Below are positions 3,457-22,609 of a stretch of DNA of 64,000 nt, piece by piece (position 1 is the first letter of the stretch; the number at the start of each line of letters is the position of its first letter). The notes under the pieces were generated by a model that saw nothing but the letters and a program-made list of their open reading frames with translations, was not told the origin of the DNA and did no database searches. The position numbers and the translations under genes were made by a program. Origin of the DNA: an uncultured Pseudomonadota bacterium (GTDB lineage Bacteria > Myxococcota_A > Bradymonadia > Bradymonadales > GCA-2716585); the NCBI GenBank assembly GCA_937123825.1, contig CAKZKQ010000781.1, forward strand, positions 18,434 to 82,433, written 5' to 3'.

Positions 3457-3458
3457 CA

Positions 3459-4214: not shown

Positions 4215-4512
4215 GATTCCTCCTCTTTGAGTGCGATGTGAATGCTCGAATGAAGCATCCTATCCCACAGGGACCTTTTAAGCGACCTCTAGACCAAGTC
4301 CCGCTCAAAACGAGCCAGCCAGGACGGCTCTCGCAGCCCATTTCTTCGTCGTCGATGCTCGATGAACCCCCGGTTCATCTGTGCTCTCCTCCTCGAACTG
4401 GACTGCGATTTCTCGCCCTTGCAAGGCTCGTTTTAAACGGCACTCGGTCTGGGGATCGACGCGGGGATCGACATATCATAAATTGCCAAAACCAGTGGTC
4501 CGGAGACACGCG

Positions 4513-6228
4513 ATGGGATGGTGGGACCGCCTTCTGGGGCGTTCAACGCAAAAACCAAGGCAGACAAAGGCACCGAGAGGCCGCCATGGGGTGGTGTACA
4601 ACCCCCCAACCCCCATCCACATCCAGGGCAGCGACAATCTGGTGCTCTCCAAGCTCCGCGATGCCCTCCACAGCCCCCCGGGGGGACACTCCTGGGCCCT
4701 GATCTGCACCTGGCTCGAAGAGGCCCACACGCTCGAATGCCTCGACATGGCCCTCGACTACGTTCGGGAGCCGCTGACCCGATGGGATGCTCGCCTTTGC
4801 ACCCTCCCACCACGGTGGTTTGGACGCCTGCGCGCAGGAAAAATGCCCCCAGAACTGCTCAAGGTGGTGCGCTGCGTGGACTTGAGCCACACAGACGTCG
4901 GCGCTGGCGGCATCTCCCACCTCCTCAAGCACCCCATGATGGCTGGGGTCGAGCACTTGAACCTGCGCAACAACAACATTCATTCCACCATCGCCCACCA
5001 CATCGCCGAAGGGCCGCCCTGGCAACACCTCAAGACCCTCGATATGGCCTGCAACCGCGTCGATGCACCCATGGCCATGGAGCTTTTTGACATTCTGGAG
5101 CTGCGCGGCGTCTTTAAAACCCTGGAAAAACTCGATCTAAGCTCCAACAACATCGCCCCACCCCACACCGATCGCCTCCAAAAGCACCTGGGCATGGTCG
5201 CGCCATCGCTGGAAGTCCTCCTTGATGGCAATGGAGACCCCAGACAACGGCCCGACGGAGCCCTCCACCGCATCCCCAGCCGCGCGCTGGGCCAGGAATT
5301 TGTGCGGATCACCGCAGAACACCATCAAAATGGCCGCCACAGCATGTCCACAGGCATGGCGATACGCTATCTGACACACGCAGCGCTGCCCGAAGAACGG
5401 CTTTATGAAGTCCAGACCATGCTCGAGGTGCTGCACGAAGGCCTGGAACCCCAAAATGACTCCAAAGTGCTCGCCGTGGCCCGCATGGCAGCACGCGTCT
5501 TTGACGACATGAGCCGCGAAACCACGCCTCAGCCCCCCAAAGAGCGCCAACCCTCGCCACAAACCCTCCTGGATGAGCTTCAGTGGATCGCCGATCACCT
5601 GGGTCATAGGCGTCGGCCCAGGTGGACGGCCTATCTGGCCTTGATGGATCACCTCATGGCGCCCGATGAGGCGTTTCAGAGAGAGAGTTTTGGGGTCTTT
5701 ACCATCGCGGCGCTGGCCGCGCTGCCGCCCCAACGGCGAAACGACTACCTGAGCGTGCTCCTTGAACACCACCAGAGCCCCTTCATACGCGCGCAAGCCG
5801 CGCGTGCGCTCGCATTGGACCGACCAGAGGCGGTTGAAACGCTCCGTGGACTGCTCAATGAACCTGACGCGGGGGTTCACGATGCCCTCTTCTTTGCCAT
5901 ACCGCGACAACCTGCGCTGAAATACCCCGACACCCCCACCTTATTGGCGCTTCTGCGTGAAGACGCCCTGCCCTGGCACCGCACCCAGTTGCTCGAAGAC
6001 GCCATGTGGCGCGCTCAGAGCCCCGAAGAGATCTGGTCCTGGCTTGCACAACACGCCCAGGAGCTTGCCCCGTCGCTTCTGCGCCACTGGATCGTTCAGT
6101 GGCTCAAGAACCACACCCCCCAAACCCTGCAAAATTATGAAGCGCGCCTGGATGAGCTGCCCGCACACCTGCGCCAGGCACTCAAGACCGCGTTGGACGA
6201 TGAGTGGCGTCGCATGCCTCCCCCCTGA
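4513..6228 (+). CDS. Ribonuclease-inhibitor-type LRR protein with C-terminal HEAT-like repeats
   Basis: LRR units include VDLSHTDVGAGGISHLL, LNLRNNNIHSTIAHHI, LKTLDMACNRVDAPMAMEL and LEKLDLSSNNIAPP. The C-terminal half is helical-repeat (SPFIRAQAARALAL..., EPDAGVHDALFFAI). Start is moved to the ATG at 4513 (MGWWDRLLG); the upstream part of the track ORF is Arg/Ser-rich junk. Confidence 0.6.
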   Translation: MGWWDRLLGRSTQKPRQTKAPRGRHGVVYNPPTPIHIQGSDNLVLSKLRDALHSPPGGHSWALICTWLEEAHTLECLDMALDYVREPLTRWDARLCTLPPRWFGRLRAGKMPPELLKVVRCVDLSHTDVGAGGISHLLKHPMMAGVEHLNLRNNNIHSTIAHHIAEGPPWQHLKTLDMACNRVDAPMAMELFDILELRGVFKTLEKLDLSSNNIAPPHTDRLQKHLGMVAPSLEVLLDGNGDPRQRPDGALHRIPSRALGQEFVRITAEHHQNGRHSMSTGMAIRYLTHAALPEERLYEVQTMLEVLHEGLEPQNDSKVLAVARMAARVFDDMSRETTPQPPKERQPSPQTLLDELQWIADHLGHRRRPRWTAYLALMDHLMAPDEAFQRESFGVFTIAALAALPPQRRNDYLSVLLEHHQSPFIRAQAARALALDRPEAVETLRGLLNEPDAGVHDALFFAIPRQPALKYPDTPTLLALLREDALPWHRTQLLEDAMWRAQSPEEIWSWLAQHAQELAPSLLRHWIVQWLKNHTPQTLQNYEARLDELPAHLRQALKTALDDEWRRMPPP

Positions 6229-6441
6229 GCACATCCCACCCCAAAGAAGCTGCAAAACATCCAAGCTGCATCCGCTCCAACGGGCCTGAAAAATGCCTGG
6301 GGCGAGCGCGCCACATCGAGGCATCGGCACAACAACTCAGGTGTGACAAAAGCTCACACTTGGGCCCTTTGGGGGCCGTGGGCGCCGTTGGTCCACCTTT
6401 TGCGGTGGTGGGGTGCCAAGGTTTGGCAAAAGGAGCAGGCC

Positions 6442-7902
6442 ATGCAAAAGACGATGATTGCGCTGGCTTTGGTGAGTGGGGCGCTGGCTGGTTGCCAAGC
6501 GGCCCCCACAGACGCACAAGACACCGAGAGGCAATCGGGGGCCGTCATCAACGGCACCCGTGAGCCCACCAACGTTCCCCTGACCCCAGGACAGCAGCTT
6601 GGCGTGGTGTACATCACCTCGCCGGGCAACCCGGGCTCTTCATGGTGCTCGGGGACGCTGATCGCCCCTCGTCTGGTGTCCACGGCCAAGCACTGCGTGG
6701 GCAGAAACCGGATGGCGGTTGGCTTTGGGCGAGATCCTTCTCGCTCGGATCCGGTGATCGCTGCCTCGCAGGTGCACAACCACCCACAGCGAGATGTGAC
6801 CATCCTGGTCCTGGAGCAAGACGCCACCGTGGTGGTGCCGGAGGTGGAGATCATCCCCATGAACCGCCGCATCTTGTCTCAGACCGACATGGGCGCACCG
6901 GTCGAGGTGGGGGGCTATGGGCAGACCAGAGACAACAGCCGCCGGGGGCGGTGGTTTGGTGGTTTGAGCATCGCCAACATGACCCAGGGCAACTTGACCG
7001 TCTACGCCAACCGAGAGCGCAACTTTTGCTTTGGGGACTCAGGCGGACCGGTATTTATGAACGATCCGCGCGGGGGCGCGGTCACGGCGGCGGTCATCTC
7101 GGCCATTCAAGACGATGGGACCTGCCTGGGTTATGGCTACGTTGAGCGTCTGGACTACCTGATGGACTGGGTGGACGGCATCGCCGCGCAGGCCACGCCC
7201 GATGGGGGCTGCGCCGGGATTCCGTATGAGGGGCGCTGCCAGGGCGACGTGGCCCAGTGGTGCGAAGGCACGACGGTCATCGAGCAGGACTGTGGCGCCA
7301 GCGGCGTGCAATGCAGCTTCATCAATGAACAAGAGGGTTACGGCTGCGGCTGCGAAGGGCTGGACCCCGCAGGCCAATGCACCAACGAGGTGGCCCAGCG
7401 ATGCCAGGACGGCCGCCTCTTTGAAGAAGACTGCCAGGTGCAGGGGCTCTTTTGCGACGCCGGACAGTGCACCGATGCCCCACCGTGCGAAGAGGGGTCT
7501 TCGTGGTGTGAAGAGTCCAGCGCGGTCACTTGTGTGGGCGGGGAGCTGGTGCGGGAAGACTGTGCCCCCATGGGGGCCATCTGCCGAGGCGGAGCGTGCG
7601 TCTCGTTGGAATCTGACGACCCGGCGGACCCACCCGGACAAGGCGCCCCTGCACCCCCGGGCGAACAAGACGATGAAGGCTCGGGCTGGGTGGATGAGAG
7701 CGATGGCGGTGACGCGCTGGGCTGGGCCGATGAAGGGCAGCCCGAGGGTGAGGTGGGTTGGGCACCCGATGAACCTCAGGAGCAGTCGGAGCCGCTCCAG
7801 GACAACCTGACGTGTCAGACGACGTCCAGAAGCACGACCCCAGGGATGTGGTGGACGATGTTGGCGCTGATCAGCCTGGGGCTGGTGCGGCGCAGGAGGT
7901 AA
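6442..7902 (+). CDS. Secreted trypsin-like (S1) serine protease with Cys-rich C-terminal repeats and a C-terminal Cys/helix/RRRR sorting tag
   Basis: AGGAG at 6431-6435 precedes the ATG at 6442. Signal peptide with lipobox (ALVSGALAGC). S1 motifs TAKHC (His) and GDSGGP (Ser). Three to four repeats of C-x-G...C...DC...G..C. The tail is LTCQTTSRSTTPGMWWTMLALISLGLVRRRR. Confidence 0.85.
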   Translation: MQKTMIALALVSGALAGCQAAPTDAQDTERQSGAVINGTREPTNVPLTPGQQLGVVYITSPGNPGSSWCSGTLIAPRLVSTAKHCVGRNRMAVGFGRDPSRSDPVIAASQVHNHPQRDVTILVLEQDATVVVPEVEIIPMNRRILSQTDMGAPVEVGGYGQTRDNSRRGRWFGGLSIANMTQGNLTVYANRERNFCFGDSGGPVFMNDPRGGAVTAAVISAIQDDGTCLGYGYVERLDYLMDWVDGIAAQATPDGGCAGIPYEGRCQGDVAQWCEGTTVIEQDCGASGVQCSFINEQEGYGCGCEGLDPAGQCTNEVAQRCQDGRLFEEDCQVQGLFCDAGQCTDAPPCEEGSSWCEESSAVTCVGGELVREDCAPMGAICRGGACVSLESDDPADPPGQGAPAPPGEQDDEGSGWVDESDGGDALGWADEGQPEGEVGWAPDEPQEQSEPLQDNLTCQTTSRSTTPGMWWTMLALISLGLVRRRR

Positions 7903-8155
7903 AGCCCGCCCGTCCGCCAGCGGAAGTCGTGTTCGAGTCCGTGGGCACCCTTTCTTGTCCCCTTTTGAGCGGTTTGGCTCCAAACGTACCGGATCAAGTG
8001 CCCCTCCAAACGCACAAAGCTGGCGTTTGTCCCCCTTTTGACGCCAGGATGTCCCTGGACGACATCGGGGTGCCAAACCCCGCCGTCGATGTGAACTCTA
8101 TGGAAGGCCAATGCGGGGTCCCAGCGGCCTGCGCAGCGCTTTGGAGGCGTTGAAG

Positions 8156-8890: not shown

Positions 8891-9628
8891 TCAATCTTCG
8901 GAGAGCAAGAAGCCCGCGACGGCGCCGCCCTCAATCAAGCGCTGAAGCTCATCCAGCACCGGTTTGCGATCAAATTCACCATAAAGCCCCTCCAAAAACG
9001 CCCACCCCGAGGCCAATGGGCTGCCGTCGTGCAGGTGCGCCACCATCTGAGCCAGCATTGGTGTGACCTGGAGGTGCTTGAAGCGCTCATTTGAAGGGTT
9101 TCTCCACGCCACGATGAAGGCCGGGACCGCCAAAGGGGCTGGCCAACCGTCGCTGCGGCGGTCAAGGGTGTGCACCGGGTGCTGGTAGATGGCCAATCGG
9201 GCGCTTGGATCGAGGATCATCGCCGCGCGATCATCAATGTCGCGCCCCAAGACCGGCGATGCAGGCAGGTCTGGGGCGTTGATGACGTCTATTTCGAGCA
9301 CTTCCCAGTGGATCAACTCGGCAAAGGCCGGGTGAGGGACCGAAAGATCGGGGGCTGAGCCCAACCAAGCGGCAAATTCGCCCGCGATCTGCCAGTAAAG
9401 CCTCGACTGGGGCGGAGATTGCTCCAACCACACCCCCAAAATCCGATTGAGGTGCTCGGCAGACGTCAAATGGGTCGCCACAGGGATGGCGCGCCGCACT
9501 GCGCCCAGGATGCTCTTGCGCACCTGGCGCCTGTAGAGGCGCTGCGCACGCTCGTCCATCCCCTCAAAGAGGCGGACATCCTGGTCGAGCAGCATCTTGC
9601 GGACAGATTCCTCAAGGGCGGCGTTCAT
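8891..9628 (-). CDS. DUF2063-family partner protein of an MNIO enzyme (HvfC/BufC-like)
   Basis: 245 aa. The N-terminal pattern (RLYRRQVRKSILGAVRRAIPV...LGVWLEQSPPQSRLYWQIAGEFAAWL) matches the DUF2063 layout. The start overlaps the stop of the upstream DUF692 gene by 4 nt (9625-9628). Confidence 0.7.
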   Translation of the reverse strand: MNAALEESVRKMLLDQDVRLFEGMDERAQRLYRRQVRKSILGAVRRAIPVATHLTSAEHLNRILGVWLEQSPPQSRLYWQIAGEFAAWLGSAPDLSVPHPAFAELIHWEVLEIDVINAPDLPASPVLGRDIDDRAAMILDPSARLAIYQHPVHTLDRRSDGWPAPLAVPAFIVAWRNPSNERFKHLQVTPMLAQMVAHLHDGSPLASGWAFLEGLYGEFDRKPVLDELQRLIEGGAVAGFLLSED

Positions 9629-10494
9629 GAGGCGGCCTCCATGATGCTGCGCAGCCTGATCAACTCATCCTCAAGCTCACTCAAGGGCGGAAAGTTGCCG
9701 TCGCGCTCCAAAAGCACCGGCACATCACGGGGCAAGCGCTCCATGGTGTAGGCGAAGAGGTCGTAGACAGGATCGGCGATGGGCATCGCGTGCGTGTCCA
9801 ACAGAATGTCGGGGGCTTCCTGGAAGTGACCGGCCACGTGGATCTGAATCACGCGCTCCAGCGGCAACGCGTCGATGTAGTCCCTGGGCTCGAAGCCAAA
9901 GTTGAAGGCGTTGACGTAGACATTGTTGACGTCAAGCAAGAGCCCACAGTCCGCCTCTTCCAAGACGGCGGTGACAAACTCGGGCTCGGTCATCTCGCCG
10001 CCGGGCATGTCACCGTAAGCCGAGACATTCTCCACCGCCATGGGCAACTCCAGGAAGTCCTGAACCTGACGCACGCGCTGCGCAGTGCGCCGCACGGCCT
10101 CGCCGTTGAAAGGCAGCGGGAGCAACTCGTGGATCTCTGCGCCCGCGATGTGGGTCATGCACAGATGGTCGCTGTACCAACGCGCGCCGACCTCTTTGAG
10201 CATCGCTTTGACCTGGGTCAAAAGCTCCATCTGCATCGGGGCAAGACCCGCCAGGTCACCACAGAGACCGTGACACACCACCGGCCAGCGCTCTCTGGCG
10301 GCGTGCAGGAGCCGAGCGCGCCGACCCCCCACACCCACATAGTTTTCAGGGCAAACTTCAATAAAGCGGGCCTGGGACTGCGGCGCGCTGAGCATGGCGT
10401 CGGCCAAACCCAGGCGAAAGCCAAGCCCAACGCCTTCAATGGCGTCGATGGGTTGTGTCATGGTCCTCATCCAAAAGGGACTGGCGCCAACCAT
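9625..10494 (-). CDS. DUF692 / multinuclear non-heme iron oxidase (MNIO), HvfB/MbnB-like
   Basis: Family-typical blocks are VGLGFRLGL, FIEVCPENY, WPVVCHGL, WYSDHLC, LLPLPF, MAVENVSAY, GLLLDVNNVYVNAFNFGF and IHVAGH. The start is ambiguous (ATGs at 10494, 10470, 10461). Confidence 0.85.
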   Translation of the reverse strand: MVGASPFWMRTMTQPIDAIEGVGLGFRLGLADAMLSAPQSQARFIEVCPENYVGVGGRRARLLHAARERWPVVCHGLCGDLAGLAPMQMELLTQVKAMLKEVGARWYSDHLCMTHIAGAEIHELLPLPFNGEAVRRTAQRVRQVQDFLELPMAVENVSAYGDMPGGEMTEPEFVTAVLEEADCGLLLDVNNVYVNAFNFGFEPRDYIDALPLERVIQIHVAGHFQEAPDILLDTHAMPIADPVYDLFAYTMERLPRDVPVLLERDGNFPPLSELEDELIRLRSIMEAAS

Positions 10495-11285: not shown

Positions 11286-11358
11286 AGTCGCCGGAGGGAC
11301 TCGAACCCCCTTCCTCCTGCTTGAAAGGCAGGCGCTCGACCTGTTGAGCTTCAGCGAC
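11286..11358 (-). tRNA. tRNA-Glu(UUC), atypical body (A8; generic D-arm)
   Basis: The reverse complement folds as GUCGCUG-AA-GCUC-AACAGGUC-GAGC-G-CCUGC-CUUUCAA-GCAGG-AGGAA-GGGGG-UUCGAGU-CCCUC-CGGCGAC-U. It has U2:A71. No CCA is encoded. Confidence 0.7.
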
Positions 11359-11432
11359 CTGTTGCGCGCAGACATGCTATGCAAGACCGCATCGCACACT
11401 GTGCACACAAACCATCATACACCAGAACCCAC

Positions 11433-11505
11433 AGCCGCCGGAGGGGCTCGAACCCCCATAAACAGATTAGCCATCCGCTGCTCTGACCTGTTGAGCTACA
11501 GCGGC
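11433..11505 (-). tRNA. tRNA-like gene, isotype undetermined (class-I body, anticodon position reads GCU, G at position 33)
   Basis: Folds as GCCGCUG-UA-GCUC-AACAGGUCA-GAGC-A-GCGGA-UGGCUAA-UCUGU-UUAU-GGGGG-UUCGAGC-CCCUC-CGGCGGC-U. The anticodon stem has two G-U pairs. The variable region is 4 nt, so it is not a bacterial tRNA-Ser body. Confidence 0.5.
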
Positions 11506-11547
11506 GCAATGTGGAAGGGCTTTGGCGACGCTGCGCCAAAACATCCA

Positions 11548-11621
11548 AGCCGCCGGAAGGAATCGAACCCCCAACCTATGGTTCCGAAGACCATCGCTCT
11601 GTCCTGTTGAGCTACAGCGGC
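11548..11621 (-). tRNA. tRNA-Arg(UCG)
   Basis: Folds as GCCGCUG-UA-GCUC-AACAGGACA-GAGC-G-AUGGU-CUUCGGA-ACCAU-AGGUU-GGGGG-UUCGAUU-CCUUC-CGGCGGC-U. A20 and C35 are present. Confidence 0.8.
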
Positions 11622-11684
11622 GCAGTATGTGTTGTATGCGCGCGAATCAGACGGCGCAGCGTTTGTCCCCACACACAGTGACAA

Positions 11685-11757
11685 AGCCGCCGGAGGGATT
11701 CGAACCCCCATAAGACGGTTTTGCAGACCGCCTGCCTTTCCTATCAGCCACAGCGGC
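11685..11757 (-). tRNA. tRNA-Cys(GCA)
   Basis: Acceptor GCCGCUG/CGGCGGC with discriminator U73. Anticodon arm GCGGU-CUGCAAA-ACCGU. T-arm GGGGG-UUCGAAU-CCCUC. The D-stem is irregular (about 3 bp). Confidence 0.75.
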
Positions 11758-13315: not shown

Positions 13316-13390
13316 CGCCGCTGGGGGGATTCGAACCCCCACCCTCGGAAATTATGAGTCTCCGCGCTCTGCCTTTGGAGCTACAGCGAC
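13316..13390 (-). tRNA. tRNA-Met(CAU) (elongator Met or Ile2; not initiator-like)
   Basis: Folds as GUCGCUG-UA-GCUC-CAAAGGCA-GAGC-..-GGAGA-CUCAUAA-UUUCC-..-GGGGG-UUCGAAU-CCCCC-CAGCGGC-G. It shares the scaffold of the 11.3-11.8 kb array. Confidence 0.75.
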
Positions 13391-13474: not shown

Positions 13475-16400
13475 TCAACGCGGGCGGATGTAGCGGGCAA
13501 AGGGTTGATTGTGGAGGTAGACCTCGTCTCCAAAGCGGCGCATGGCCTGCTGTGCTTGTGCGTCCATGGTTGGGCGCCGCAGGACCTGGAGGTTGTGTTG
13601 GAGCTGCGCCAACGTCTCGGGCGCAGAGAGGCAGGCAGAGACCCCCGGCTGACTGAGCACATACCGGTAGGCGTCGGCGGCCGAGGGAGGCGCGGGGGCC
13701 TGGGGGTGCGGGCGCTGGAGCATGCGGCCGTAGCAAAGGTTGGAGAAGGACACCAATCCCGCCCCGTGGCGGAGCACGGCGGGCAAGACCTGACGCTCCA
13801 CGCCACGGTGGGCGGCGTTGTGCCGGATCATGATCAGGCGCCAACCTTGCTCCAGCGCCTCCAATGCCAAAGAGCGCTGGTGGGTGGAGATGCCGTAGGT
13901 GCCAATGAGCCCTTCGGCCTTGAGGTCCTCCAGGTCCTGCATCAACGGCGCGCGCAAACGGCCACTTGAGCGCACCCAGAAGATCAAGAAGACCGGCAAG
14001 ACATCGAGCCTCAACCGCTCAAGCACATGCTCAATGTCCCGGCGCAGCTCATCGGCCGTGGTCCCCATCGAGCCCGACATCACCACCAGATCACTGCGGC
14101 GCTGCGGCTCAATATGCCTGAAGAAGCGGGTCATGCCGTTGTAGGGCGGCTCCCAGAAGAAGAAGTTGCACCCGGCCTCCGCGGCCTGCGCAAAACCCTC
14201 GGCGGACAACCCGTAGTGCCCCGTCACCCCCATGGGCGTGACCCAGGGCCCCTGGGGACACAGTTGACGCATGCCCGCAGGCGCTTCAGAAGGCCAAAGC
14301 ACCGCTCGATCACGCGAAACAAGCGACGACACCGAGATCGCCTTGGATGACGGCACCAAATCGCCCAGCGGCCGCCGAACCCACCGGGCCACCGCACGCA
14401 ACACTCGCCAGGAGGTCTCCAAATCCGGCTGCGCCCAGACCTCACGGGCCCGATCCAGGGTCAGTGCGGCCTCTCGCACCCTGTGGTCGTGATCTTCCTG
14501 CAACAAAAACAGCTCGGGGCATGAGTGGGCGTTGGCGTTGAACCAGTCGGCGGCCAATTTGCGCACCTTCCAAGCCCCATCTCGGGCCATGTCCTGCCAA
14601 AATGCCATCGTTTGGACCCCATGGGGCGCCGACGCCAAGGATCTGCACAACGCCAAACGCAGTTCGACATGCCCACAGGCCTTTTTTGACACCCATGAGA
14701 GGTCAACAAGGAGCGCATTGAGAGAAAGAGACCCGAGACAGCGCGCCAATCCCTGCGCCGAGAGCCCTTTGCGCGCCTTTTGCCACTCGGCGACCTCCTC
14801 ATCCCCCTCTAAATCGTGGAGAACAAGCCCCATCGCCCTCGATCTAATGTCCTCCACGGGGTGTTCGAGGAGCGCCCGCGCCAACAAGCGCGTCTCGTCA
14901 TCGACTTCAACGCCCAAAAGGTGGTCCAAGGCCCACAACAATGCCCCTTTGGAGGGCCGGACAGCGAGGACCTCGCGCGCCAGCGCAGCGCGGCGCGACG
15001 CCGTCAGCATGGACAAGAGCTTCAGCACCCTCCCAGGGCGCCTCCTGGTGTCACCAAACACCTCCAAAACCGCCGCCAGCATCGACGTCGAACCCCATTT
15101 CACCAAATGGTTCGTCGCCGCCCTTGCCACGCGGTCATCCGAGTGGTCCAGGAGCCCCACACAAAGCCCCACATCGCGCCTCGCGTCGTCCTTACACAAG
15201 GCGCCAAGGTTCAAATGCAGCACCGCCGGGTCATCGTCCCACCACGGCGCACCATAAGCGGGCAGTGATGGGGACTGCGGCGCTGGAAACCGGGTCAAAA
15301 AGCCTTCGCGCTGGGCCGCTGGGGTCAAATGAAAGCGGACATAGCGCGCTGTGGCTCTATAAAGGGGCGTGCTCTGCTGCGATTCGTCGAGTCTGGCCAC
15401 CACATCGGCGACATTGTCAGGCTCAGACCTCACCCACTCGATCACAAACGTCGCCGCCGCATGGCGAACTCGCCAGAGCGGATCATCAAAGGCCTCAAAA
15501 AGGAGCCATCGCCACGATTCAGGTCCCCTGAACCAGGCCTCGACGATGGTTCTGCGCACCAACCAGGCCGATTCGAGACAAAAAAGGCGCCGAAGGAGAT
15601 CTCCCAGGCCCTCGTGAGGCACACGGACAAGCGATCGAATGGACTCCTGACGCACAGAGAGGGCCGGATGGTGGCCCGCAGCGTCGATCAACGCGTTGCT
15701 CGCCACCTTGGCCTCACTGCCTGCCAACAAAGACGCCGCCTCCAAAGCCCCGCTCAACGATCGCTCGGGCTCAAGGAGGTCACACAAGCCCTCCACAACC
15801 CCCTGCGGCAAGGTTTCCAGGGCTTTGAGCCGCTCGATCGTCGCCAAGACCGTCTCTTTGCGGACCAAACCATGGGCGAGCACCCGCGCTTGGGCGCCGT
15901 TTGGGTTGAGGGGAACACTTTCCACCGGCGCACTGGCGGTTCCCTGACTGTCCAACACCGCACCGGGGCCCAACAAGCGCTCCGAGGCCGCCAGGACATC
16001 AGGGTGTTCTTCGAGCTTGAGCGCCAAACGGATGGATGCTTTGGGGACGAGCGCCCCCAGACGCCCCAAGGACCACAGCGCGCTGCGGCGAACCTCCCAG
16101 TGCGGATCCTGCGCCACCGAGCGCAAGAGCGCCTCAGGGGACGACTTCAAACGGCCCAGCGTCACCACCGCCGACTGGCGCACCTTCCACTGCCCGTCCC
16201 CAGCCGCCAACGCCACCAACGCCCCCACGCTCTCGATGGCCTGTGGACCACACTGGCCCAAACCACGGGCCGCCGCCGCGCGGGCATCTGGATGCGCGGC
16301 CTCCCGGGCATTTTCCAGACGCACCACCGAGCGCAGTTGACCCAGCGCCCAGGCGGCGGCCTTGCGCTGGCTCCAACGCTGGCTGTGACGCAACCACCAC

Positions 16401-16651
16401 CCAAGCGACGGACCCAAGACACCGTCCCCCAAAGACTGCACGCGACGCAGCGCCCCCTCGCGCCCCGGCCCCACCACCGCCTGGGTCAACCACTGCGGGG
16501 TCTGCGCCGGGATGTGACGCGCCATCAAAGCCTGGGCGCGGCGCTGCAACTGAGGTTCTGCACCAAAAAGGATTTCAAAGAGGAGTCGCCCCAGGGTCTC
16601 TTGCGGCAACGCCTCGGCGCGCTCCCACTGGTCCAGGTCGGCAGGTGTCAT
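13475..16651 (-). CDS. HEAT-repeat protein fused to a C-terminal aldo/keto-reductase-like domain
   Basis: There are many HEAT/PBS-lyase-type units (DGQWKVRQSAVVTLGRL, DPHWEVRRSALWSLGRLG, DPLWRVRHAAATFV, DDRVARAATNHL, DGAWKVRKLAADW, DHDHRVREAALTL). The last ~300 aa are AKR-like (GCNFFFWEPPYNG ... LKAEGLIGTYGISTH ... IMIRHNAAH ... GAGLVSFSNLCYGRML). I chose the ATG at 16651, 4 nt after the upstream stop. A TTG at 16705 is an alternative. Confidence 0.6.
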   Translation of the reverse strand: MTPADLDQWERAEALPQETLGRLLFEILFGAEPQLQRRAQALMARHIPAQTPQWLTQAVVGPGREGALRRVQSLGDGVLGPSLGWWLRHSQRWSQRKAAAWALGQLRSVVRLENAREAAHPDARAAAARGLGQCGPQAIESVGALVALAAGDGQWKVRQSAVVTLGRLKSSPEALLRSVAQDPHWEVRRSALWSLGRLGALVPKASIRLALKLEEHPDVLAASERLLGPGAVLDSQGTASAPVESVPLNPNGAQARVLAHGLVRKETVLATIERLKALETLPQGVVEGLCDLLEPERSLSGALEAASLLAGSEAKVASNALIDAAGHHPALSVRQESIRSLVRVPHEGLGDLLRRLFCLESAWLVRRTIVEAWFRGPESWRWLLFEAFDDPLWRVRHAAATFVIEWVRSEPDNVADVVARLDESQQSTPLYRATARYVRFHLTPAAQREGFLTRFPAPQSPSLPAYGAPWWDDDPAVLHLNLGALCKDDARRDVGLCVGLLDHSDDRVARAATNHLVKWGSTSMLAAVLEVFGDTRRRPGRVLKLLSMLTASRRAALAREVLAVRPSKGALLWALDHLLGVEVDDETRLLARALLEHPVEDIRSRAMGLVLHDLEGDEEVAEWQKARKGLSAQGLARCLGSLSLNALLVDLSWVSKKACGHVELRLALCRSLASAPHGVQTMAFWQDMARDGAWKVRKLAADWFNANAHSCPELFLLQEDHDHRVREAALTLDRAREVWAQPDLETSWRVLRAVARWVRRPLGDLVPSSKAISVSSLVSRDRAVLWPSEAPAGMRQLCPQGPWVTPMGVTGHYGLSAEGFAQAAEAGCNFFFWEPPYNGMTRFFRHIEPQRRSDLVVMSGSMGTTADELRRDIEHVLERLRLDVLPVFLIFWVRSSGRLRAPLMQDLEDLKAEGLIGTYGISTHQRSLALEALEQGWRLIMIRHNAAHRGVERQVLPAVLRHGAGLVSFSNLCYGRMLQRPHPQAPAPPSAADAYRYVLSQPGVSACLSAPETLAQLQHNLQVLRRPTMDAQAQQAMRRFGDEVYLHNQPFARYIRPR

Positions 16652-16655
16652 GGCA

Positions 16656-17825
16656 TCAAGCTCCAAAAGTCGGCAGCGCGTCCTGGTGACCCCTTTGGCG
16701 CTCAAGTTCGCCCAGGACCTCCCAAACCGCGCGGAGCAGCTCGGCCGGGGCCTGCGGCGCCGAGGACTGGAGCCGGGGTGGATGCGGCGAAGGGAGTTGT
16801 GGGGTCTTCAGTTCGCATTGAAAGCGGATTCGGGTGGTTTTGGCCAGGAGGGTGACCTGGAGGGTGCAGTTGTGCTTGTCGATGGGCCACCACCCCAGTT
16901 GAACCACGCTGACCAGACGCAAATCGATGCTTTGGGGCGGTTGGTCGTCCAGAGTGAGGCTCAACACGGTGTTTTGGAGCGTCGCAGCGCCGTCGGCCCG
17001 GCTTAAGGTGCGCTTCAGGCCCCTTTTGTCGTGGTGGTGCAGCGACCAACGGCGCTCTTTGGGGTGGTTGGTCTCAAACGGCAGTGGGGGATCGCTGGGG
17101 TGCAGCCGGTGGTTTCCGTCGGCGGCCAGCAGCGATTGGCCGTGGGTGTTGAGTTGTTTGGCGTCGGGGTTCCAGCGGCGCTCCAGATCAAAAGGGCTCA
17201 GCGTGTGCCCTGTGATGGCGGTGACCATGGCGGGGATGTAGTCCACATGAAGGTCTGTCAGCGCGCGCCGAATCTTTCGGTTGGAGCGCAGACCAGCAAG
17301 GATCGCCAGCAAGGCGGCGCCGTGAACCAAACCGATGCATTCAAAGCCAGGGAAGAGGATTCCAGCCTCCATCCACACAAACCCAGCCAGCCCCGCCGCG
17401 ATCAGGAGCGGTATGAGACCGAGGGTGAGCCCTATTGAGCGGCGGCGGCACCTCTTGAGCTCAAGCATCACATCGGGACGCAAAAGCGCCACAAGTTCAT
17501 CGGTCAGCGGCTCGGGGTTGGGGGGAGGTGTCTTTTGAGCGATGTCCATGGCCACTTCGGACACGTGCACCAGCGCCTTTGTCATAACCGCGTCGGGCAC
17601 AGCGCGGGTCAGCTTGTAGTGGCGATCGAGCTTTTGCCTTCGGATGAGATCCAACGACACCCGCTTGAACGCGTCGTGGTGGAGATCGAAGCGAAAAAAT
17701 GTGTTCACCGCCCATGGCATCACCAGGACGATCGGCAGCGGGATGAGCGCCAGATAAGCGAACCAGATGATGTCCAATCCGGGTAACAAGACATTCCTCC
17801 TAAAGGTTGACAGCCTTTGGGACAT
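16656..17825 (-). CDS. Membrane protein (about 4 TM segments) with a soluble C-terminal domain, function unknown
   Basis: TM segments include LLPGLDIIWFAYLALIPLPIVLVMPW, IGLTLGLIPLLIAAGLAGFVW and LVHGAALLAILAGL. It is tightly coupled to the downstream HEAT-AKR gene. The start is uncertain (ATG 17825 or TTG 17852). Confidence 0.5.
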   Translation of the reverse strand: MSQRLSTFRRNVLLPGLDIIWFAYLALIPLPIVLVMPWAVNTFFRFDLHHDAFKRVSLDLIRRQKLDRHYKLTRAVPDAVMTKALVHVSEVAMDIAQKTPPPNPEPLTDELVALLRPDVMLELKRCRRRSIGLTLGLIPLLIAAGLAGFVWMEAGILFPGFECIGLVHGAALLAILAGLRSNRKIRRALTDLHVDYIPAMVTAITGHTLSPFDLERRWNPDAKQLNTHGQSLLAADGNHRLHPSDPPLPFETNHPKERRWSLHHHDKRGLKRTLSRADGAATLQNTVLSLTLDDQPPQSIDLRLVSVVQLGWWPIDKHNCTLQVTLLAKTTRIRFQCELKTPQLPSPHPPRLQSSAPQAPAELLRAVWEVLGELERQRGHQDALPTFGA

Positions 17826-17938
17826 GATTAAATCGCCGGCCACCCAAATCAAGACACACAGGACCTACCCACAAGGGGTCAGGCTATGGGGTGCTCTGCG
17901 CCTGCTGATGGGCAGAGGTGCATCTGGAGGGTCGAACG

Positions 17939-19051
17939 ATGGTCGCAAAAGCCGCAAAGATCAAAATCAAAAATGGTGAAGCGTTTGACGTGGTCTTCTA
18001 CGCCAACCCTCGCAAAGAGAGCGCGTACCGGTTTCGGGCCACGCACATCGGCGAGCATCGGGCGCCGAAGGTGATCCTCTGTGACGATGGGCGGATTCAG
18101 CCTGGGAAGCTGACCAAGGTGCGGGTGGTGTCGGTGAAGAAGCCCGCCAGCCGCGATCGGGGCTTCATTGAGGTGGAGTACTTGAGCCAGGTGCGTTTTG
18201 CGCTCGACGACGGGATCTATGTGGACCGGATGTTGGCGCTCAAGCTCCAGGCGTTGCTGGAGAGCGGGTTGAACATCCTGCTCGATGGCCCACAGGGCTG
18301 CGGCAAGACGGTCTTGTCGCGCAAGATCGCCAAGGCTCTGGGGTTGGAGTACGTCTTCTTCAACTGCAGCGCGGTTTACGAGCCCACGGACTTTCTGGCC
18401 AGCCTCCAGGTCAAAGCCAACGACGCGGGGCAGGCCGAGACGGTGTGGATCCCGACAGACATCTTGCGTGCCTTGGAGGCAGCGCACGCCGAGCCCAACC
18501 GCCGGTTCCTGATCTTCCTCGACGAGTTCAACCGCTGCCGTGAGATGGCCCGCAACGGCATCATGCCGGCGCTGGATTCGACCCGCAAGATGTTCAACCC
18601 GCTGACGGGAAGCTCGATGATGATCCCGGACAACGTGTTGTGGATCGCGGCGATCAACAACGGGGCGCAGTTTACGGGCACCACGAGCGTGGACCCGGCC
18701 CAGTTGGATCGTTTTGCGCCGTTGAAGATCGGCTACATGCCCGATCAAGAGGAAACCCGGCTTCTGGTCCGCCGCAACCCCAGCGTGCCCCGGGCTCAGA
18801 TCGTCAAAGTCGTCCAAGCGGCCAACGCCGTACGGAGCGATGACGAGTTGGGCGTCGATTTGAGCATGCGGGCGACCGAAGAGGTCTGCACGTTGCTGGG
18901 TCACCCCAACTTTATGAGCAAAGAAGGTCAGGATCCGGTCCCCGAGCTGCTCAAGTCGAGCTTTTGCGGCCGCTTTCAGGGCACCTGGGACGATCCGACC
19001 TCGGATGCGGGCCTGGTCTGGCAGACCATTGTCCGCGCATTGGGGCTCTAG
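17939..19051 (+). CDS. AAA_5 / MoxR-like AAA+ ATPase with an extra ~115-aa N-terminal domain
   Basis: GGAGG at 17926-17930 precedes the ATG at 17939. Walker A is LLDGPQGCGKT (GKT at 18302-18310). Walker B is FLIFLDEFNR. Further blocks are WIAAINNG and QLDRF. Confidence 0.85.
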   Translation: MVAKAAKIKIKNGEAFDVVFYANPRKESAYRFRATHIGEHRAPKVILCDDGRIQPGKLTKVRVVSVKKPASRDRGFIEVEYLSQVRFALDDGIYVDRMLALKLQALLESGLNILLDGPQGCGKTVLSRKIAKALGLEYVFFNCSAVYEPTDFLASLQVKANDAGQAETVWIPTDILRALEAAHAEPNRRFLIFLDEFNRCREMARNGIMPALDSTRKMFNPLTGSSMMIPDNVLWIAAINNGAQFTGTTSVDPAQLDRFAPLKIGYMPDQEETRLLVRRNPSVPRAQIVKVVQAANAVRSDDELGVDLSMRATEEVCTLLGHPNFMSKEGQDPVPELLKSSFCGRFQGTWDDPTSDAGLVWQTIVRALGL

Positions 19052-19135
19052 GCCCTGTCTGACCGCTGTCAGACACGGCTTTAAGAGCACGTTTGCGCCT
19101 TGCGCGCAGACCAAAAGGCCTGGAGGGCCTGTGTC

Positions 19136-22100
19136 ATGGCTGGTTTTGAGCACATTGTTGATCTGAACGCACTCCAAACGCTGGCGTTGGCGCACAGCGC
19201 GGACCCAGAGACGCTCATTTTGGTGCTTGAGCGCGTCTCCAAGGTGGGCACGCTCGCCGCACAGCCCATCTTGCAGCACTGGTTTGAGCACACTCAGGAC
19301 CCACGGGTCTTTAGAGCGGCGCTGAATGGGCTGGCGAGCGTGTGCGATGACCGCGCCGAGGCGCTGGTGGATGGTGCGGTGGGGGAAAAACGCTTTCTGA
19401 GGGAGGTGTTGGACCACGTGTGCGCCGATCTAGCCCGTGGTGGCAAGGGCATCTCGCGTCTGGTGGTCAAATTCACAGAGGACAACCCGCAGTTGCGCCG
19501 CTTGTGCGTCGATGCAGTCCTCAAAGAGGGTGTCAAAACGGGTTGGGAGCGGTTGGAGCCAGCGATTGAAGATATCGGCTGGGAGCATGACGCGCTGCTG
19601 CTGGCCGACATTGGCGCGTGGGTCAGAGATTTGCCCGAAGGCGAAGCCAAATCACGACAGTTGGAGGCCCTCTGGGAGGTCTTGGGCAAACGCTTTACAG
19701 AGTTGGACGACGACGACGGCATCGGAACGCTGGAGACGCTGTGGGAATGCGACTGGCCGCTGCGCATGATCGCGGTGGAGGACATGCTGAAGTCCGAAGA
19801 GTACGACGCGAGGGTGTGCGCGGTGCAACTTTTGGCCACCACTGGTGATGAGAAGCACCTCAAAGCGCTGCTGGAGGCGGCCAAGCTCGATTCTGATGAC
19901 GATGTGCGGTGCGCCGCCCTGCATGCGCTCTTTAAAGTGAACCACGAGATCGCGCTGAAGACGGCGCGGCGCGCGCTCAGGCGCGACAAGAACGCCAAGG
20001 TCCGCGCCGAGGCGTGCAAAATGCTCAAAGATCACGGCGACGCGGCGCAAGATCGGGAGCGTTTGCTCAAACTGTTGCGACACGATCAAGAAGAAGCGCC
20101 TGCGTTGGCTGCGTTTGAAACGCTGAAGCACCTGGTGCCCAACGAAATGTTGGAGGTGGCGCTCGATTTGCTCGGCGATCAGCGCAGTTTTGTGGCCAAG
20201 GAGGCGCTGGCGCACTGCGATCAAGCCGACAGCGTGGACGAGACGTGCGAGGCGTTGACCAAAGCCCTTAAAACGGCCACACCTGAGTTGGTGGATGCAG
20301 CCATAGCGTGGTCAAACCAACGTGCCCCCAAGAAAACCAAGGCGCTGGTGAGCTCTGCCATGGAAAATCCGGACGCCAAGGCGCAGTTGAAACTGAGTCA
20401 GGCGCTGGAGTCCATTGGAGACAGGCGCTTTATGGGTCTGCTCAAGCAACAGGCTCAGTCGGGCAACGGCCAGATCCGCGTTGCTGCGCTGCAGGCCATG
20501 CGCAAGGTGGCACCGGAACACAACCGGTCACTGACGGAGCCCTTTTTGGGGGACTGTAACGCCGCTGTGCGCGCCAAAGCGGTGGCTGGGCTGGTGGATG
20601 ACGAGAGCCGCTGGGCGTTGGAGGCTGCCCTCAAGGCAGCGCGAGACGAGAGTATGGACGTCCGCATCGAGGCGCTGCGTGCGATGCGCAAGTTTGATGA
20701 TCCGCGCGTCTTTGCCGAGTTGGTCTCTTCGCTCAACGATGTGACATCCAATGTCCGCGACATCGCAACGGGCATCCTCACGGGCGCACAGGGGCCAGTG
20801 CCGTCGCTGGATCGGGTTCAGATGCAGTGGGGCCGTGGTTCGCAGCCCGTTTGGGAGGTGGTGCGCCGAAGGGTGGAAGCCATCAACCGTTGGGCGGTCT
20901 TTATGGGGCAGGAGCTGCTTGGCAAACCTGTGGTTGTGCACCAGTACCGCCAGGGTTTGGGCCGAACCCACGCCGCCAACCCCTCCACTGGAACGGTGGA
21001 GATCGAGGTGTCGGACACGCCGGTCACCAGCGGCCATCCGCACGGCGAGGAGGTCATGAAGGGGCTGGTGCTGCACGAGTTGGGGCACCACCTGTGTGAC
21101 ATCGGGGTGCGTGGGCACCACACGATGCGCAGCATCGCCCGCTCAGCGAAGATCAAGGATATCTACGACATCCTGATCGACGAGCGCCTTGAGCGGACGC
21201 TTCGCTCTCGGCGCCCGGCCTGGGGGCTCTACTTCGACCGGCTGGCGTCGTACGCCTTTGCTCAGGATGAGCATCGGATGGGTTTGGAGCAGTTGGCACA
21301 GCTCATTGGCCGCGACGATGTGCGCCAGGTGCGCGACGAGATCATCCAAGGGGTACTGCCTGGGCGGCTGGTGTCACCTGAAGACGGGTCGTTGGGCGAA
21401 GATGCACAGGTGGCGCTGCGCGACAGCGATCTTCTGGGGCTGCCAGGGGTGGTGCCGCTGACGATGGGCTTTTTGTGGTGTCTGCGCTGTGGGTTTGACC
21501 CCAGGCTGCACCATGATCCCAGGGTGGCCGAGGCGGTGTCGCTGGTGCCCACCGGTCTGCGCCACATCAACCACGCCGGGGTGCTGAAGGTGGCCCGGGA
21601 GGTGGCGCGGGTCTTGGAGCACGAGGACGGTGAGGCGCAGGAGCAAATGCAGCGCATGACCCGCCTTGGTCAGTGCGGATCGCTGGGGAGTGTGCTTGGT
21701 CGTCTTTCGGATGCCAACATGCTGCCAGAGAGCCACATCCAGGACGGCGCTAACATCCGCCAGACGCCAGAACCCAAGGTGAAGATCGTCACCGAGACCA
21801 AACCGCCGGACAAACGGCGAGGTCGCGGGGGTCAGACGCTTAACCTGGGCGATGACATCGACTTTCCGCGTCTGAAGGAGCGCCGCCAGCCCAAAGGCGA
21901 TGCAGGGGCGGAGTCGCATCTGGTCGCAGGGGTGCGCAAGCATGTGCGGCGCTTGAGGGGTTATATGGAGCGGCTGGGCCGCGGCGAGGTGGAAGAGTAC
22001 GCTTCGCGTCGCGGTCGTCGTTTGGATATGGCCCAGGCGCGCAAGGTGGCTTGGAGCGGTCGGCCCAACCTCCTGGTGCACAACCGCCAGGAGATCGACG

Positions 22101-22609
22101 CCGATGCGTACATCGGGCTCTTGATCGACGCGTCGGGCTCGATGAGTGGTCGGCGCTTGCAGTTGGCGCAGTCGTTTGGGGCGTTGGTGACGGAGAGCGC
22201 GCGCGGTTTGCGTGGCCTTGAGGGCCGCGTGGATGGCTTTGACGACCAATTCTACTACGAGTTGGGTGATTTTCAGCGCCACAACATCAGCGCGTTGGAG
22301 TCAGGAGGCGGCAACAATGACTCGGGGGCGCTCCTGGTGGCGGCACAGCACGCGCTGGCCAGCCGCAAGCGCAACCGCTTGCTGGTGATGATCAGCGATG
22401 GTTCTCCGAGCGCTTGCACGGTGGAGTCGCTGCGTCGGTTGGTGGGGCGCTTGACGCGTCAGCATGGGATCATCTGCGCTCAGGCAGCGGTGGCGTCCAT
22501 CGATCATCAGGCCTTTGCCCACAGCATCGACCTGACGGACGTGGGGACGGACGTGGCGGTGGCCCGCTTTGGGGCCATGCTGATGCGCTTGACGCGCCGC
22601 TGGCGGTAG
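19136..22609 (+). CDS. Giant HEAT-repeat + HExxH metallopeptidase-like + vWA (MIDAS) protein, presumed partner of the AAA_5 ATPase
   Basis: GGAGGG at 19122-19127 precedes the ATG at 19136. About 560 aa of HEAT units (DPRVFRAALNGL, DDDVRCAALHAL, NAKVRAEACKML, NGQIRVAALQAM, NAAVRAKAVAGL, SMDVRIEALRAM, TSNVRDIATGIL). HELGH at 21074-21088. The vWA domain has DASGS at 22127-22141 and LLVMISDGSP. Confidence 0.8.
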   Translation: MAGFEHIVDLNALQTLALAHSADPETLILVLERVSKVGTLAAQPILQHWFEHTQDPRVFRAALNGLASVCDDRAEALVDGAVGEKRFLREVLDHVCADLARGGKGISRLVVKFTEDNPQLRRLCVDAVLKEGVKTGWERLEPAIEDIGWEHDALLLADIGAWVRDLPEGEAKSRQLEALWEVLGKRFTELDDDDGIGTLETLWECDWPLRMIAVEDMLKSEEYDARVCAVQLLATTGDEKHLKALLEAAKLDSDDDVRCAALHALFKVNHEIALKTARRALRRDKNAKVRAEACKMLKDHGDAAQDRERLLKLLRHDQEEAPALAAFETLKHLVPNEMLEVALDLLGDQRSFVAKEALAHCDQADSVDETCEALTKALKTATPELVDAAIAWSNQRAPKKTKALVSSAMENPDAKAQLKLSQALESIGDRRFMGLLKQQAQSGNGQIRVAALQAMRKVAPEHNRSLTEPFLGDCNAAVRAKAVAGLVDDESRWALEAALKAARDESMDVRIEALRAMRKFDDPRVFAELVSSLNDVTSNVRDIATGILTGAQGPVPSLDRVQMQWGRGSQPVWEVVRRRVEAINRWAVFMGQELLGKPVVVHQYRQGLGRTHAANPSTGTVEIEVSDTPVTSGHPHGEEVMKGLVLHELGHHLCDIGVRGHHTMRSIARSAKIKDIYDILIDERLERTLRSRRPAWGLYFDRLASYAFAQDEHRMGLEQLAQLIGRDDVRQVRDEIIQGVLPGRLVSPEDGSLGEDAQVALRDSDLLGLPGVVPLTMGFLWCLRCGFDPRLHHDPRVAEAVSLVPTGLRHINHAGVLKVAREVARVLEHEDGEAQEQMQRMTRLGQCGSLGSVLGRLSDANMLPESHIQDGANIRQTPEPKVKIVTETKPPDKRRGRGGQTLNLGDDIDFPRLKERRQPKGDAGAESHLVAGVRKHVRRLRGYMERLGRGEVEEYASRRGRRLDMAQARKVAWSGRPNLLVHNRQEIDADAYIGLLIDASGSMSGRRLQLAQSFGALVTESARGLRGLEGRVDGFDDQFYYELGDFQRHNISALESGGGNNDSGALLVAAQHALASRKRNRLLVMISDGSPSACTVESLRRLVGRLTRQHGIICAQAAVASIDHQAFAHSIDLTDVGTDVAVARFGAMLMRLTRRWR

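Follow-up and report, generated by a model that had tools for sequence, protein, structure and literature searches.

A MoxR-class ATPase and a HEAT-repeat adaptor of CobT-like layout, with an intact HExxH motif, form a conserved two-gene module

Which of the genes that meet at a short divergent spacer in a Bradymonadales genome belong together, and what kind of machine do they encode? The DNA that we analysed (the window) is 64,000 nucleotides (nt) long, covers positions 18,434 to 82,433 of contig CAKZKQ010000781.1 in assembly GCA_937123825.1, and comes from an uncultured bacterium. At window positions 13475-22609 two pairs of genes lie on opposite strands. The plus-strand pair encodes an AAA_5 ATPase of the MoxR class and a large adaptor protein with a HEAT solenoid, an HExxH motif and a vWA domain bearing a MIDAS, or metal-ion-dependent adhesion site. 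The minus-strand pair encodes a membrane protein and a HEAT protein fused to a domain resembling the aldo/keto reductases (AKR). A first-pass annotation of the window had taken all four for one cluster. We found instead that the real unit is a module of two genes, ATPase and adaptor. Pairs of a MoxR-class ATPase and a vWA protein are among the least understood AAA+ machines, and in the few that have been solved the task is the maturation of a metal centre, namely Co in B12, FeB in NO reductase and Mg in chlorophyll. The features of the module are given below; residue numbers from H85 to D526 refer to the 595-residue C-terminal module of the adaptor.

17939-19051, plus strand: AAA_5 ATPase of the MoxR class, CobS/NorQ-like, 370 amino acids (aa), assigned from Pfam, PDB and PHROG matches
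17939-18223, plus strand: N-terminal domain of the ATPase, about aa 1-95, conserved in both clades of the family
18287-18310, plus strand: Walker A, GPQGCGKT (GPQG.GKT invariant)
18515-18526, plus strand: Walker B, FLDE (D195, E196), invariant
19136-22609, plus strand: adaptor, 1157 aa, HEAT solenoid followed by a CobT-like module
19136-20821, plus strand: N-terminal HEAT/alpha-solenoid arm of about 560 aa (HEAT_2), the variable accessory part of the family
20822-21730, plus strand: predicted zincin-like (CobT_N-like) domain, from AlphaFold2 (AF2), Foldseek and hhalign
21074-21088, plus strand: HELGH (HExxH), followed by an invariant or near-invariant His
21179-21196, plus strand: DERLER in the next long helix, with E121 or E124 as candidate third metal ligand
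21731-21871, plus strand: predicted disordered linker, with a predicted local distance difference test score (pLDDT) below 50 over module residues 308-337
21980-22102, plus strand: predicted shaft, a beta-hairpin with a short tip helix (module aa 387-427; RRGRRLD motif)
22103-22606, plus strand: vWA domain, with MIDAS residues D436, S438 and S440 at 22127-22141
22316-22318 and 22397-22399, plus strand: MIDAS residues N499 and D526, respectively

Do the four genes occur together elsewhere? Homologues of the 595-residue module numbered 53, all from metagenomes or metagenome-assembled genomes, and among genomes sampled at one per species at least 111 loci turned up, 80 of which were fetched. The family lies mainly in Myxococcota (Kofleriaceae, Polyangiaceae, Nannocystaceae, Sandaracinaceae and Haliangiales) and Planctomycetota (Pirellulaceae, Gemmatales and Phycisphaeraceae), with a few members from Kiritimatiellae and Eisenbacteria. 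When the four window proteins were compared by tblastn with 85 other related loci, the ATPase gene was found with the gene for the HExxH-vWA protein in 75 of the 85, usually directly adjacent to it; where it was missing, a contig end often lay close to the vWA gene. The HEAT-AKR and membrane-protein genes were found in 0 of the 85. All-against-all clustering of open reading frames (ORFs) from 86 loci gave no third conserved gene shared beyond sublineages. It otherwise returned opposite-strand shadow ORFs and sublineage-specific neighbours, which in Myxococcota were ordinary metabolic genes (acyl-CoA dehydrogenase, metallophosphoesterase). Taken together, these results demonstrate that the conserved unit is the ATPase plus the adaptor, and the four-gene cluster of the first-pass annotation fails on synteny.

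The family divides into two clades that differ in gene order and in the size of the adaptor. In clade A, which includes the window, the ATPase gene lies upstream, the ATPases are 65-76% identical to that of the window, and the adaptors are 580-1400 aa long, of which 0-800 aa are HEAT repeats. In clade B the ATPase gene lies downstream, the ATPase identity is 49-55%, and the adaptors measure 1650-1800 aa, with an N-terminal part of ~1100 aa that is at best weakly HEAT-like. A fused CobN was considered for these ~1100 residues and rejected, as they gave no CobN match and weak HEAT similarity only. There is also a third variant of about 800-930 aa (P0045, P0240, P0243, P0244 and P0247-P0249) that starts directly at the HExxH domain; in P0045 this domain has an insertion of ~250 residues after the Glu helix, the helix that carries the DERLER motif.

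The family is large. A HMMER scan of 1.84 billion representative proteins (clusters at 50% identity) with the HExxH domain alone returned 364 proteins, and more than 1165 database clusters matched the ATPase at E ≤ 1e-10, in addition to the 111 or more species genomes mentioned above. In the full-length HMMER hits the HExxH domain lies ~280-300 residues before the C-terminus and is preceded by an N-terminal extension of 0 to about 1200 aa; because these full-length hits share the layout, the domain appears to be confined to this architecture. Source labels for the ATPase family read only 'MoxR family ATPase' or 'NorQ'.

What kind of ATPase is it? The earlier proposal that the plus arm combines an AAA_5/MoxR-type ATPase with a vWA/MIDAS adaptor, in the manner of CbbQ/CbbO, NorQ/NorD and CobS/CobT, was supported. 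The ATPase matched AAA_5 in Pfam (E 2e-14) and, among PDB sequences, midasin (1e-13) and NorQ (1.5e-7). Its best PHROG was phrog_249, the phage CobS family labelled 'porphyrin biosynthesis' (E 3.9e-20). Invariant in the ATPase family are GPQG.GKT, FLDE, N240, R258 and R311, and from the sequence we infer that N240 is sensor 1, R258 the Arg finger and R311 sensor 2. The N-terminal domain carries the motifs FRFRATH, RAPKV, KKP and RG.IEVE, and a C-terminal extension, LKSSFCGRF..WDD..DAG, is kept in both clades.

We aligned 45 adaptor sequences with 30-53% identity to the window protein, and the HExxH motif was present in 45 of 45, with H85, E86, G88 and H89 invariant and H90 kept in at least 90%. 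In the Glu helix D120, E121, L123, E124, R125 and R128 were invariant in all 45, as were the MIDAS residues D436, S438, S440, N499-D500 and S525-D526. The two sites on which the first-pass annotation had based its protease-like centre and its vWA domain are thus conserved among orthologues.

We then asked what the adaptor resembles. Pfam recognised HEAT_2 (E 4e-26) and, weakly, CobT_C and VWA; the CobT_C match was partial (profile positions 4-40, 23.8 bits), and the HEAT part matched alphaRep HEAT proteins in the PDB (E 2e-17). CobT_C was the Pfam family closest to the vWA domain and was matched by 38 of the 45 members, and the HExxH domain was covered by no Pfam family in any of the 45. AF2 modelled the 595-aa module with a pLDDT of 87.6 and the HExxH domain alone with a pLDDT of 90.4 and a predicted template-modelling score of 0.87. 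The model of the HExxH domain runs through a helix, a three-stranded sheet, the HExxH helix, the Glu helix and further helices. Over the whole module the order is helix 10-33, three strands and helices, disorder at 308-337, strand 353-355, helix 361-384, the hairpin at 387-427 and the vWA domain. Within the hairpin, strand 387-395, helix 403-412 and strand 418-425 make up the predicted shaft, which stops 9 residues short of the MIDAS Asp.

Searches with these models and alignments led to the same relatives. In Foldseek comparisons of the module with the PDB, the vWA domain of NorD in NorQD complexes was the best match (E 2e-8), followed by the MIDAS domain of midasin (E 1e-6). The best local PDB matches of the HExxH domain were weak and were all zincins (SPRTN 6mdw, selecase 4qhi, CapP 7t5t, BepA and lethal factor), and its hidden Markov model profile gave chance matches only against PDB sequences. 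Thus the gluzincin-type motifs are invariant and the order of secondary structure fits, but matches to solved peptidases were not significant by Foldseek or by profile. Against the predicted viral structures in BFVD, Foldseek matched the HExxH domain to phage proteins labelled CobT or VWFA, in each case to the N-terminal half (E-values between 1e-4 and 1e-2; 270-320 aligned columns, TM-score 0.4-0.47). One of these was gp2 of HHTV-2, which is the N-terminal piece of a split cobT according to the literature. The C-terminal 249 residues matched the CobT of Roseobacter phage CRP-810 by BLASTP (E 2e-11) in an alignment that takes in the helix, the RLD motif of the shaft and every MIDAS element, and this phage protein itself matches Pfam CobT and CobT_C. 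When the alignments of the HExxH domain and of CobT_N were compared with hhalign, E was 3.4e-5, and LHELGHH was paired with DHEAGHV and DERLER with EDIWLER (LEDIWLER in phage CobT); hhalign against single phage sequences was weak, with probabilities of 28% and 4%. The best PHROG for the adaptor was CobT (2.7e-4). Because the AF2 models and the Foldseek, BLASTP, hhalign and PHROG matches agree, we conclude from models and sequence that the last 595 residues of the adaptor are laid out like CobT, in which a zincin-like N-domain is followed by a disordered linker, a shaft (here a predicted one) and the vWA domain.

The pair is distantly related to CobS/CobT and NorQ/NorD, and its layout agrees with what has been published on CobT. 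The N-domain of CobT has one helix, a three-stranded sheet and eight helices and resembles peptidase M48C; a disordered linker of ~90 residues joins it to a C-domain made of beta0, alpha0', alpha0, a 41-residue shaft that enters the CobS ring, and the vWA domain (bioRxiv 10.64898/2026.07.21.739949). The CobT shaft, Q373-R413, stops 9 residues before D422 of a MIDAS composed of D, S, S, N and D, and in the CobSTN holoenzyme CobN is held between the zincin-like domain of CobT and its MIDAS face (bioRxiv 10.64898/2026.07.21.739949). In the window family an AAA_5 ATPase gene likewise adjoins the adaptor gene. The zincin/M48C-like N-domain, disordered linker, beta0, helix, predicted ~40-residue shaft and vWA domain follow in the same order, the MIDAS is D-S-S-N-D, the modelled shaft equals that of CobT in length and also stops 9 residues ahead of the MIDAS Asp, and, as in CobS, the small domain of the ATPase bears a C-terminal extension. 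The differences are that the window pair lies without CobN or cobalamin context, that its zincin-like domain, at about 300 aa, exceeds that of CobT, at about 205 aa, that the family adds an N-terminal solenoid of 0-1200 aa and the ATPase an extra conserved domain of ~95 aa at its N-terminus, and that the HExxH+E site is intact here whereas it is degenerate in the cellular CobT of Pandoraea. The protease-like centre and the vWA domain of the first-pass annotation are present, but they are not a new fusion; they are the CobT architecture itself in its HExxH-intact form.

Where else does the HExxH-intact form occur? A canonical cellular CobT encoded beside cobS (Pandoraea pPO70-1) reads RGAGDAAALQHAWHD where phage CobT has RGYVDHEAGHVRHSD and has lost the HExxH motif. 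The motif is kept in the window family, in phage CobT and in a Marinobacter plasmid homologue (HESAH), and the HExxH-intact CobT architecture is common in phages and plasmids. Phage and plasmid CobS/CobT-like pairs, such as those of CRP-810, HHTV-2 and pMAQU02, resemble the window pair in being two-gene modules of an AAA_5 and a vWA protein, in an N-domain where HExxH(H) is intact and an (E/D)(D/E)..(L/I)E motif comes after it, and in occurring without cobalamin genes; the structural match to phage CobT spans the whole N-domain. They differ in lying on mobile elements, whereas the window family is chromosomal (Myxococcota, Planctomycetota and relatives), in a sequence identity of about 25% only, in lacking a solenoid fusion, and, in phages, in having ATPases with other N-terminal extensions. 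Since HExxH is kept and neither the cobaltochelatase models nor a cobaltochelatase context is matched (see below), the window family belongs with the HExxH-intact CobST-like pairs; what is new in it is that the pair is chromosomal and that a giant solenoid is fused to the adaptor.

Further searches covered the phage and plasmid side. A pattern scan of genomes gave no cellular relatives of phage CobT, and a word-indexed protein search gave only 16 close relatives. CobT-like vWA proteins were found in 1026 plasmid records, including 346 from Klebsiella, 228 from Escherichia and 147 from Acinetobacter; many of these records are non-mobilizable replicons of ~110 kb with the look of phage-plasmids. 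On Marinobacter pMAQU02 (2284-6734 of locus L170) the HExxH-intact protein is encoded with an AAA ATPase and a DUF3150 protein, next to RecT, lambda-exonuclease and toprim genes. On Pandoraea oxalativorans pPO70-1 (592-8050 of locus L169) cobS-cobT, with HExxH degenerate, directly follows ureG in a urease cluster (ureD, ureABC, ureG) and no cobN is in view; this pair could have been recruited to nickel-enzyme maturation.

Two other known systems share the ATPase-vWA core. NorQ and NorD form a MoxR-class ring with a vWA adaptor that drives FeB insertion into cNOR (PMC13036017, PMC9976466). NorD is the best solved-structure match for the window vWA domain (PDB 9qh6, 9qhd), and the window ATPase has NorQ as one of its best sequence matches in the PDB. 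NorD, however, lacks the zincin-like HExxH domain and the HEAT arm, NorQ is about 270 aa long and lacks the N-terminal domain of the window ATPase, and norQD sit beside norCB, whereas no such client gene accompanies the window pair. The absence of nearby RuBisCO, NOR or cobalamin substrate genes had already been remarked on and stands. In the vWA-MoxR ternary conflict systems a conserved third partner is required (VMAP, iSTAND, FtsH or a beta-propeller), and the vWA domain is N-terminal, with effector domains that vary at the C-terminal end (Kaur et al. 2020, PMC7159879). These systems share with the window pair the MoxR-class ATPase and vWA protein, are likewise enriched in Myxococcota and Planctomycetota, and can contain arrays of HEAT or other repeats. 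The window pair differs in consisting of two genes with a C-terminal vWA and no effector. In every member of the window family the vWA domain is the C-terminus, and the variable part is N-terminal and consists of repeats only.

The Pfam pair DUF2201_N (putative metallopeptidase) and DUF2201 (VWA-like) also places HExxH before a vWA-like domain, beside a MoxR-type ATPase. The identity of the adaptor with this pair, which had been put forward for checking, was rejected, as PF13203 and PF09967 were not among the best 25 of the 43 families matched by the 45 members at E ≤ 1. The statement that no characterised pair is known to have this combination of domains stands.

How might the module work? 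We consider it probable, by analogy with the characterised relatives, that it is a motor-adaptor pair of the CobST/NorQD type that acts on a client protein. The ATPase would assemble into a hexameric ring, as CobST and NorQD suggest, with the vWA domain of the adaptor resting on the ring and the beta-hairpin shaft going into the central pore. The zincin-like domain would dock onto the small domain of the ATPase with its conserved C-terminal extension. In the way that the CobSTN holoenzyme holds CobN, the client might be gripped with the zincin-like domain on one side and the MIDAS face on the other. The HEAT arm may recruit the client, giving reach or specificity, and hydrolysis of ATP would twist the adaptor and remodel the client. 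The HExxH...E site presumably binds a metal ion, as donor or catalyst. Because the characterised relatives mature metal centres, the opening or maturing of a metal or cofactor site is the most likely purpose. Ring formation, insertion of the shaft, the existence and nature of a client and the role of the HExxH site are here drawn from these relatives; domain identities, motif conservation, two-gene synteny and the CobT-like layout are what the analysis itself shows.

What, then, are the two genes on the other strand? They lie outside the conserved module and are listed here with the spacer:

13475-16651, minus strand: HEAT solenoid fused to an AKR-like domain
13475-14470, minus strand: AKR-like TIM-barrel, the C-terminal ~265 aa of the HEAT-AKR protein, placed by alignment to 5dan
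16656-17825, minus strand: membrane protein with ~3 transmembrane helices in its N-terminal part, of no known family
17826-17938: divergent spacer, 86-149 nt, depending on the start chosen for the minus-strand gene

The ORFs of all four genes are present where the first-pass annotation put them, and an independent gene caller for metagenomes had predicted the same four on an identical contig in ENA (ERZ928060 k127_62335), with lengths of 1058, 377, 370 and 1157 aa. Most measurements of the first-pass annotation were reproduced exactly, including the 4-nt gap between the stop of the membrane protein (16656-16658) and the start of HEAT-AKR (16651), the 84-nt gap between ATPase and adaptor, and the motif positions (GKT 18302-18310, FLIFLDEFNR, HELGH 21074-21088, DASGS 22127-22141). 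The adaptor contains HEAT, HExxH and vWA parts as described, but is 1157 aa long, not 1158. The arms do diverge from one short spacer; its length of ~110 nt becomes 86-149 nt because the start of the membrane protein is ambiguous (ATG 17825 as first annotated, TTG 17852, or 17789 from the gene caller). A promoter scan found no sigma-70-like site in the spacer, and terminator-like matches were at chance level.

The product at 16656-17825 is a membrane protein, as annotated, but a hydropathy scan restricts its membrane part to three hydrophobic stretches, ~3 transmembrane helices, all in the N-terminal half, and leaves the C-terminal ~200 residues soluble. No Pfam, NCBIfam or PADLOC match to it was found. 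The fusion of HEAT repeats with an AKR-like domain was borne out by Pfam (HEAT_2 E 1e-22; Aldo_ket_red E 8e-10, partial). Compared with 2,5-diketo-D-gluconate reductase (5dan), this domain has SG in place of SK and LIFW in place of LIHW. Lys and His of the catalytic tetrad Asp-Tyr-Lys-His are thus absent, and Asp also seems, by eye, to be replaced. The domain is probably non-catalytic, judging from these residues, and is fused to about 790 aa of HEAT repeats. Scans of genome and metagenome collections found no relatives of the HEAT-AKR protein, and no paralogy was found between its HEAT region and that of the adaptor. Both minus-strand genes look like lineage-specific, incidental neighbours. 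Downstream of the HEAT-AKR stop, at a distance of 85 nt, a lone tRNA gene (13316-13390, minus strand) borders these lineage-specific genes and might point to a site of insertion. It is one of ten tRNA genes in three groups, all on the minus strand (four at 11286-11757, this one, and five at 37154-39244). No break in base composition was seen across the window.

Can the arrangement nonetheless be read as one functional cluster of four genes, in which the HEAT-AKR protein and the membrane protein serve as client, effector or anchor? Divergence from one short spacer, tight coupling within each arm and HEAT repeats in both large proteins would fit, but with both minus-strand genes missing from all related loci, no relatives of HEAT-AKR, no paralogy of the HEAT regions and no catalytic residues in the AKR-like domain, we think this very improbable. 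No more credit can be given to a genuine cobaltochelatase motor, CobS and CobT with CobN encoded elsewhere. The curated models Pfam CobT (PF06213), CobS_N and the NCBIfam CobS/CobT equivalogs were not matched, CobN and cob genes were absent from the 64-kb window and from ±10 kb flanks of related loci, and no cobalamin riboswitch was found in the window or in seven related loci. HExxH is intact, unlike in the canonical cellular CobT examined, and solenoid fusions of 560-1200 aa are unknown in CobT; these points stand against best named matches that are CobT_C in Pfam and the CobS and CobT PHROGs, and against the CobT layout itself. An NTP-dependent conflict or defence system, in which the solenoid senses an invader and the MoxR-vWA pair gates an effector, had been suggested and seems improbable to us. 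The family is concentrated where vWA-MoxR conflict systems are reported to be enriched, its solenoid is highly variable in length and sequence, its gene neighbourhoods vary, and HExxH-intact CobST-like pairs are frequent in phages and plasmids. However, PADLOC (PADLOC-DB 2.0, all four proteins) gave no significant match, only P-loop-level matches for the ATPase (E ≥ 1e-4) and HEAT-ARM_XIII on the repeats of the adaptor. There is no VMAP, iSTAND, FtsH, beta-propeller or effector domain, the domain order is the reverse of that described in PMC7159879, the ATPase is unusually conserved, and the Myxococcota flanks are the ordinary metabolic genes already named.

The rival that comes nearest to the CobST/NorQD-type motor is an ATP-gated metalloprotease. 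The zincin-like domain would be an active peptidase, substrate would be captured by the HEAT arm and the MIDAS site, ring and shaft would position or unfold it, and cleavage would depend on ATP. HExxH and a Glu 32-35 residues downstream are invariant, the order of secondary structure is zincin-like, and zincin peptidases make up all of the best local PDB matches, although these fall short of significance. A canonical cellular CobT, itself no protease, has lost HExxH, and retention of the motif in the window family therefore implies selection on the site. On the other hand, there is no significant similarity to peptidase families in Pfam or the PDB, cleavage has been demonstrated for no CobT-like protein, the peptidase annotation of phage cobT is called mistaken in the literature, and no substrate or precursor gene lies adjacent. 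We therefore regard the protease as rather unlikely. The motor-adaptor reading has its own difficulties. An intact HExxH+E site suits a true peptidase equally well; no client gene was found, and nothing conserved adjoins the pair. The N-terminal domain of the ATPase gave no Pfam match even at E ≤ 10 and no counterpart was found, and among cellular families the ATPase is not specifically closest to CobS, its closest NCBIfam being GvpN, far under the cut-off. In sequence the resemblance to CobT_N is weak and extends over 63 columns only (hhalign gives it a probability of 72%), and the HExxH domain alone had no significant structure match in a PDB set that evidently lacks CobT_N coordinates (Foldseek). 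All of these points weigh against a motor of the CobST/NorQD type, which we still consider the probable one.

Some observations at related loci and elsewhere in the window are recorded here. At one related locus (L004, 8689-10040) the ATPase gene upstream of the adaptor falls into two ORFs (161 and 286 aa), which is either a frameshift from an assembly error or a pseudogene. In one clade A locus (L005/L006, 4542-8757) the pair diverges from a gene with a NADAR domain and a WD40 giant of 1205 aa, with a VIT-VWA protein, an extracytoplasmic function sigma factor and a trypsin-like protease downstream; a WD40-type giant recurs near the pair in 5 loci (ORF cluster 26). In the window, a protein with leucine-rich and HEAT repeats (4381-6228, plus strand) is followed by a trypsin-like serine protease (6343-7902, plus strand). 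The trypsin-like gene near the pair in L005 may be a coincidence. At 8891-10494 (minus strand) an HvfC-like gene (PF09836/PF22106) overlaps a gene of the MbnB/TglH/ChrH family (DUF692) by 4 nt, with a small ORF beyond. Assigned from precomputed Pfam marks on the identical contig, these genes look like a metal-binding-peptide cassette of the Hvf or methanobactin kind. Two giant surface-type proteins, 1301 and 1422 aa long, that carry repeats of the PKD, cadherin-like, Big_9 and TSP3 types are encoded at 45323-49228 and 53716-57984 (both plus strand), a Ser/Thr kinase at 49598-51418, and a GroEL at most 74% identical to that of any species genome at 42713-44389. The GroEL reached no more than this identity in many phyla and gave no taxonomic placement; the organism thus lacks a close relative among sequenced genomes.

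The CobT scaffold thus exists with an intact zincin site and with huge solenoid fusions, in a large chromosomal family whose members could be annotated as a 'CobS/CobT-like pair, not cobaltochelatase' rather than as a 'HEAT repeat protein' and a 'MoxR/NorQ ATPase'. The family is thereby also tied to the cobST genes that phages and plasmids carry, a puzzling set for which the usual explanation is a role as B12 auxiliary genes. Once identified, the client would define either a new pathway of maturation or a new way of putting proteolysis under ATP control. More speculatively, and with the odds well against it in our judgement, the pair might represent a previously unrecognised class of AAA+-controlled zincin machine, in which the HExxH centre is driven through the vWA shaft and acts as an ATP-gated processing protease or a metal-donor metallochaperone, and in which the giant, fast-evolving solenoid could pick the clients. 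If this were true, the HExxH-intact CobST-like pairs of phages, phage-plasmids and conjugative plasmids, present in over 1000 plasmid records, would share a function outside cobalamin synthesis.

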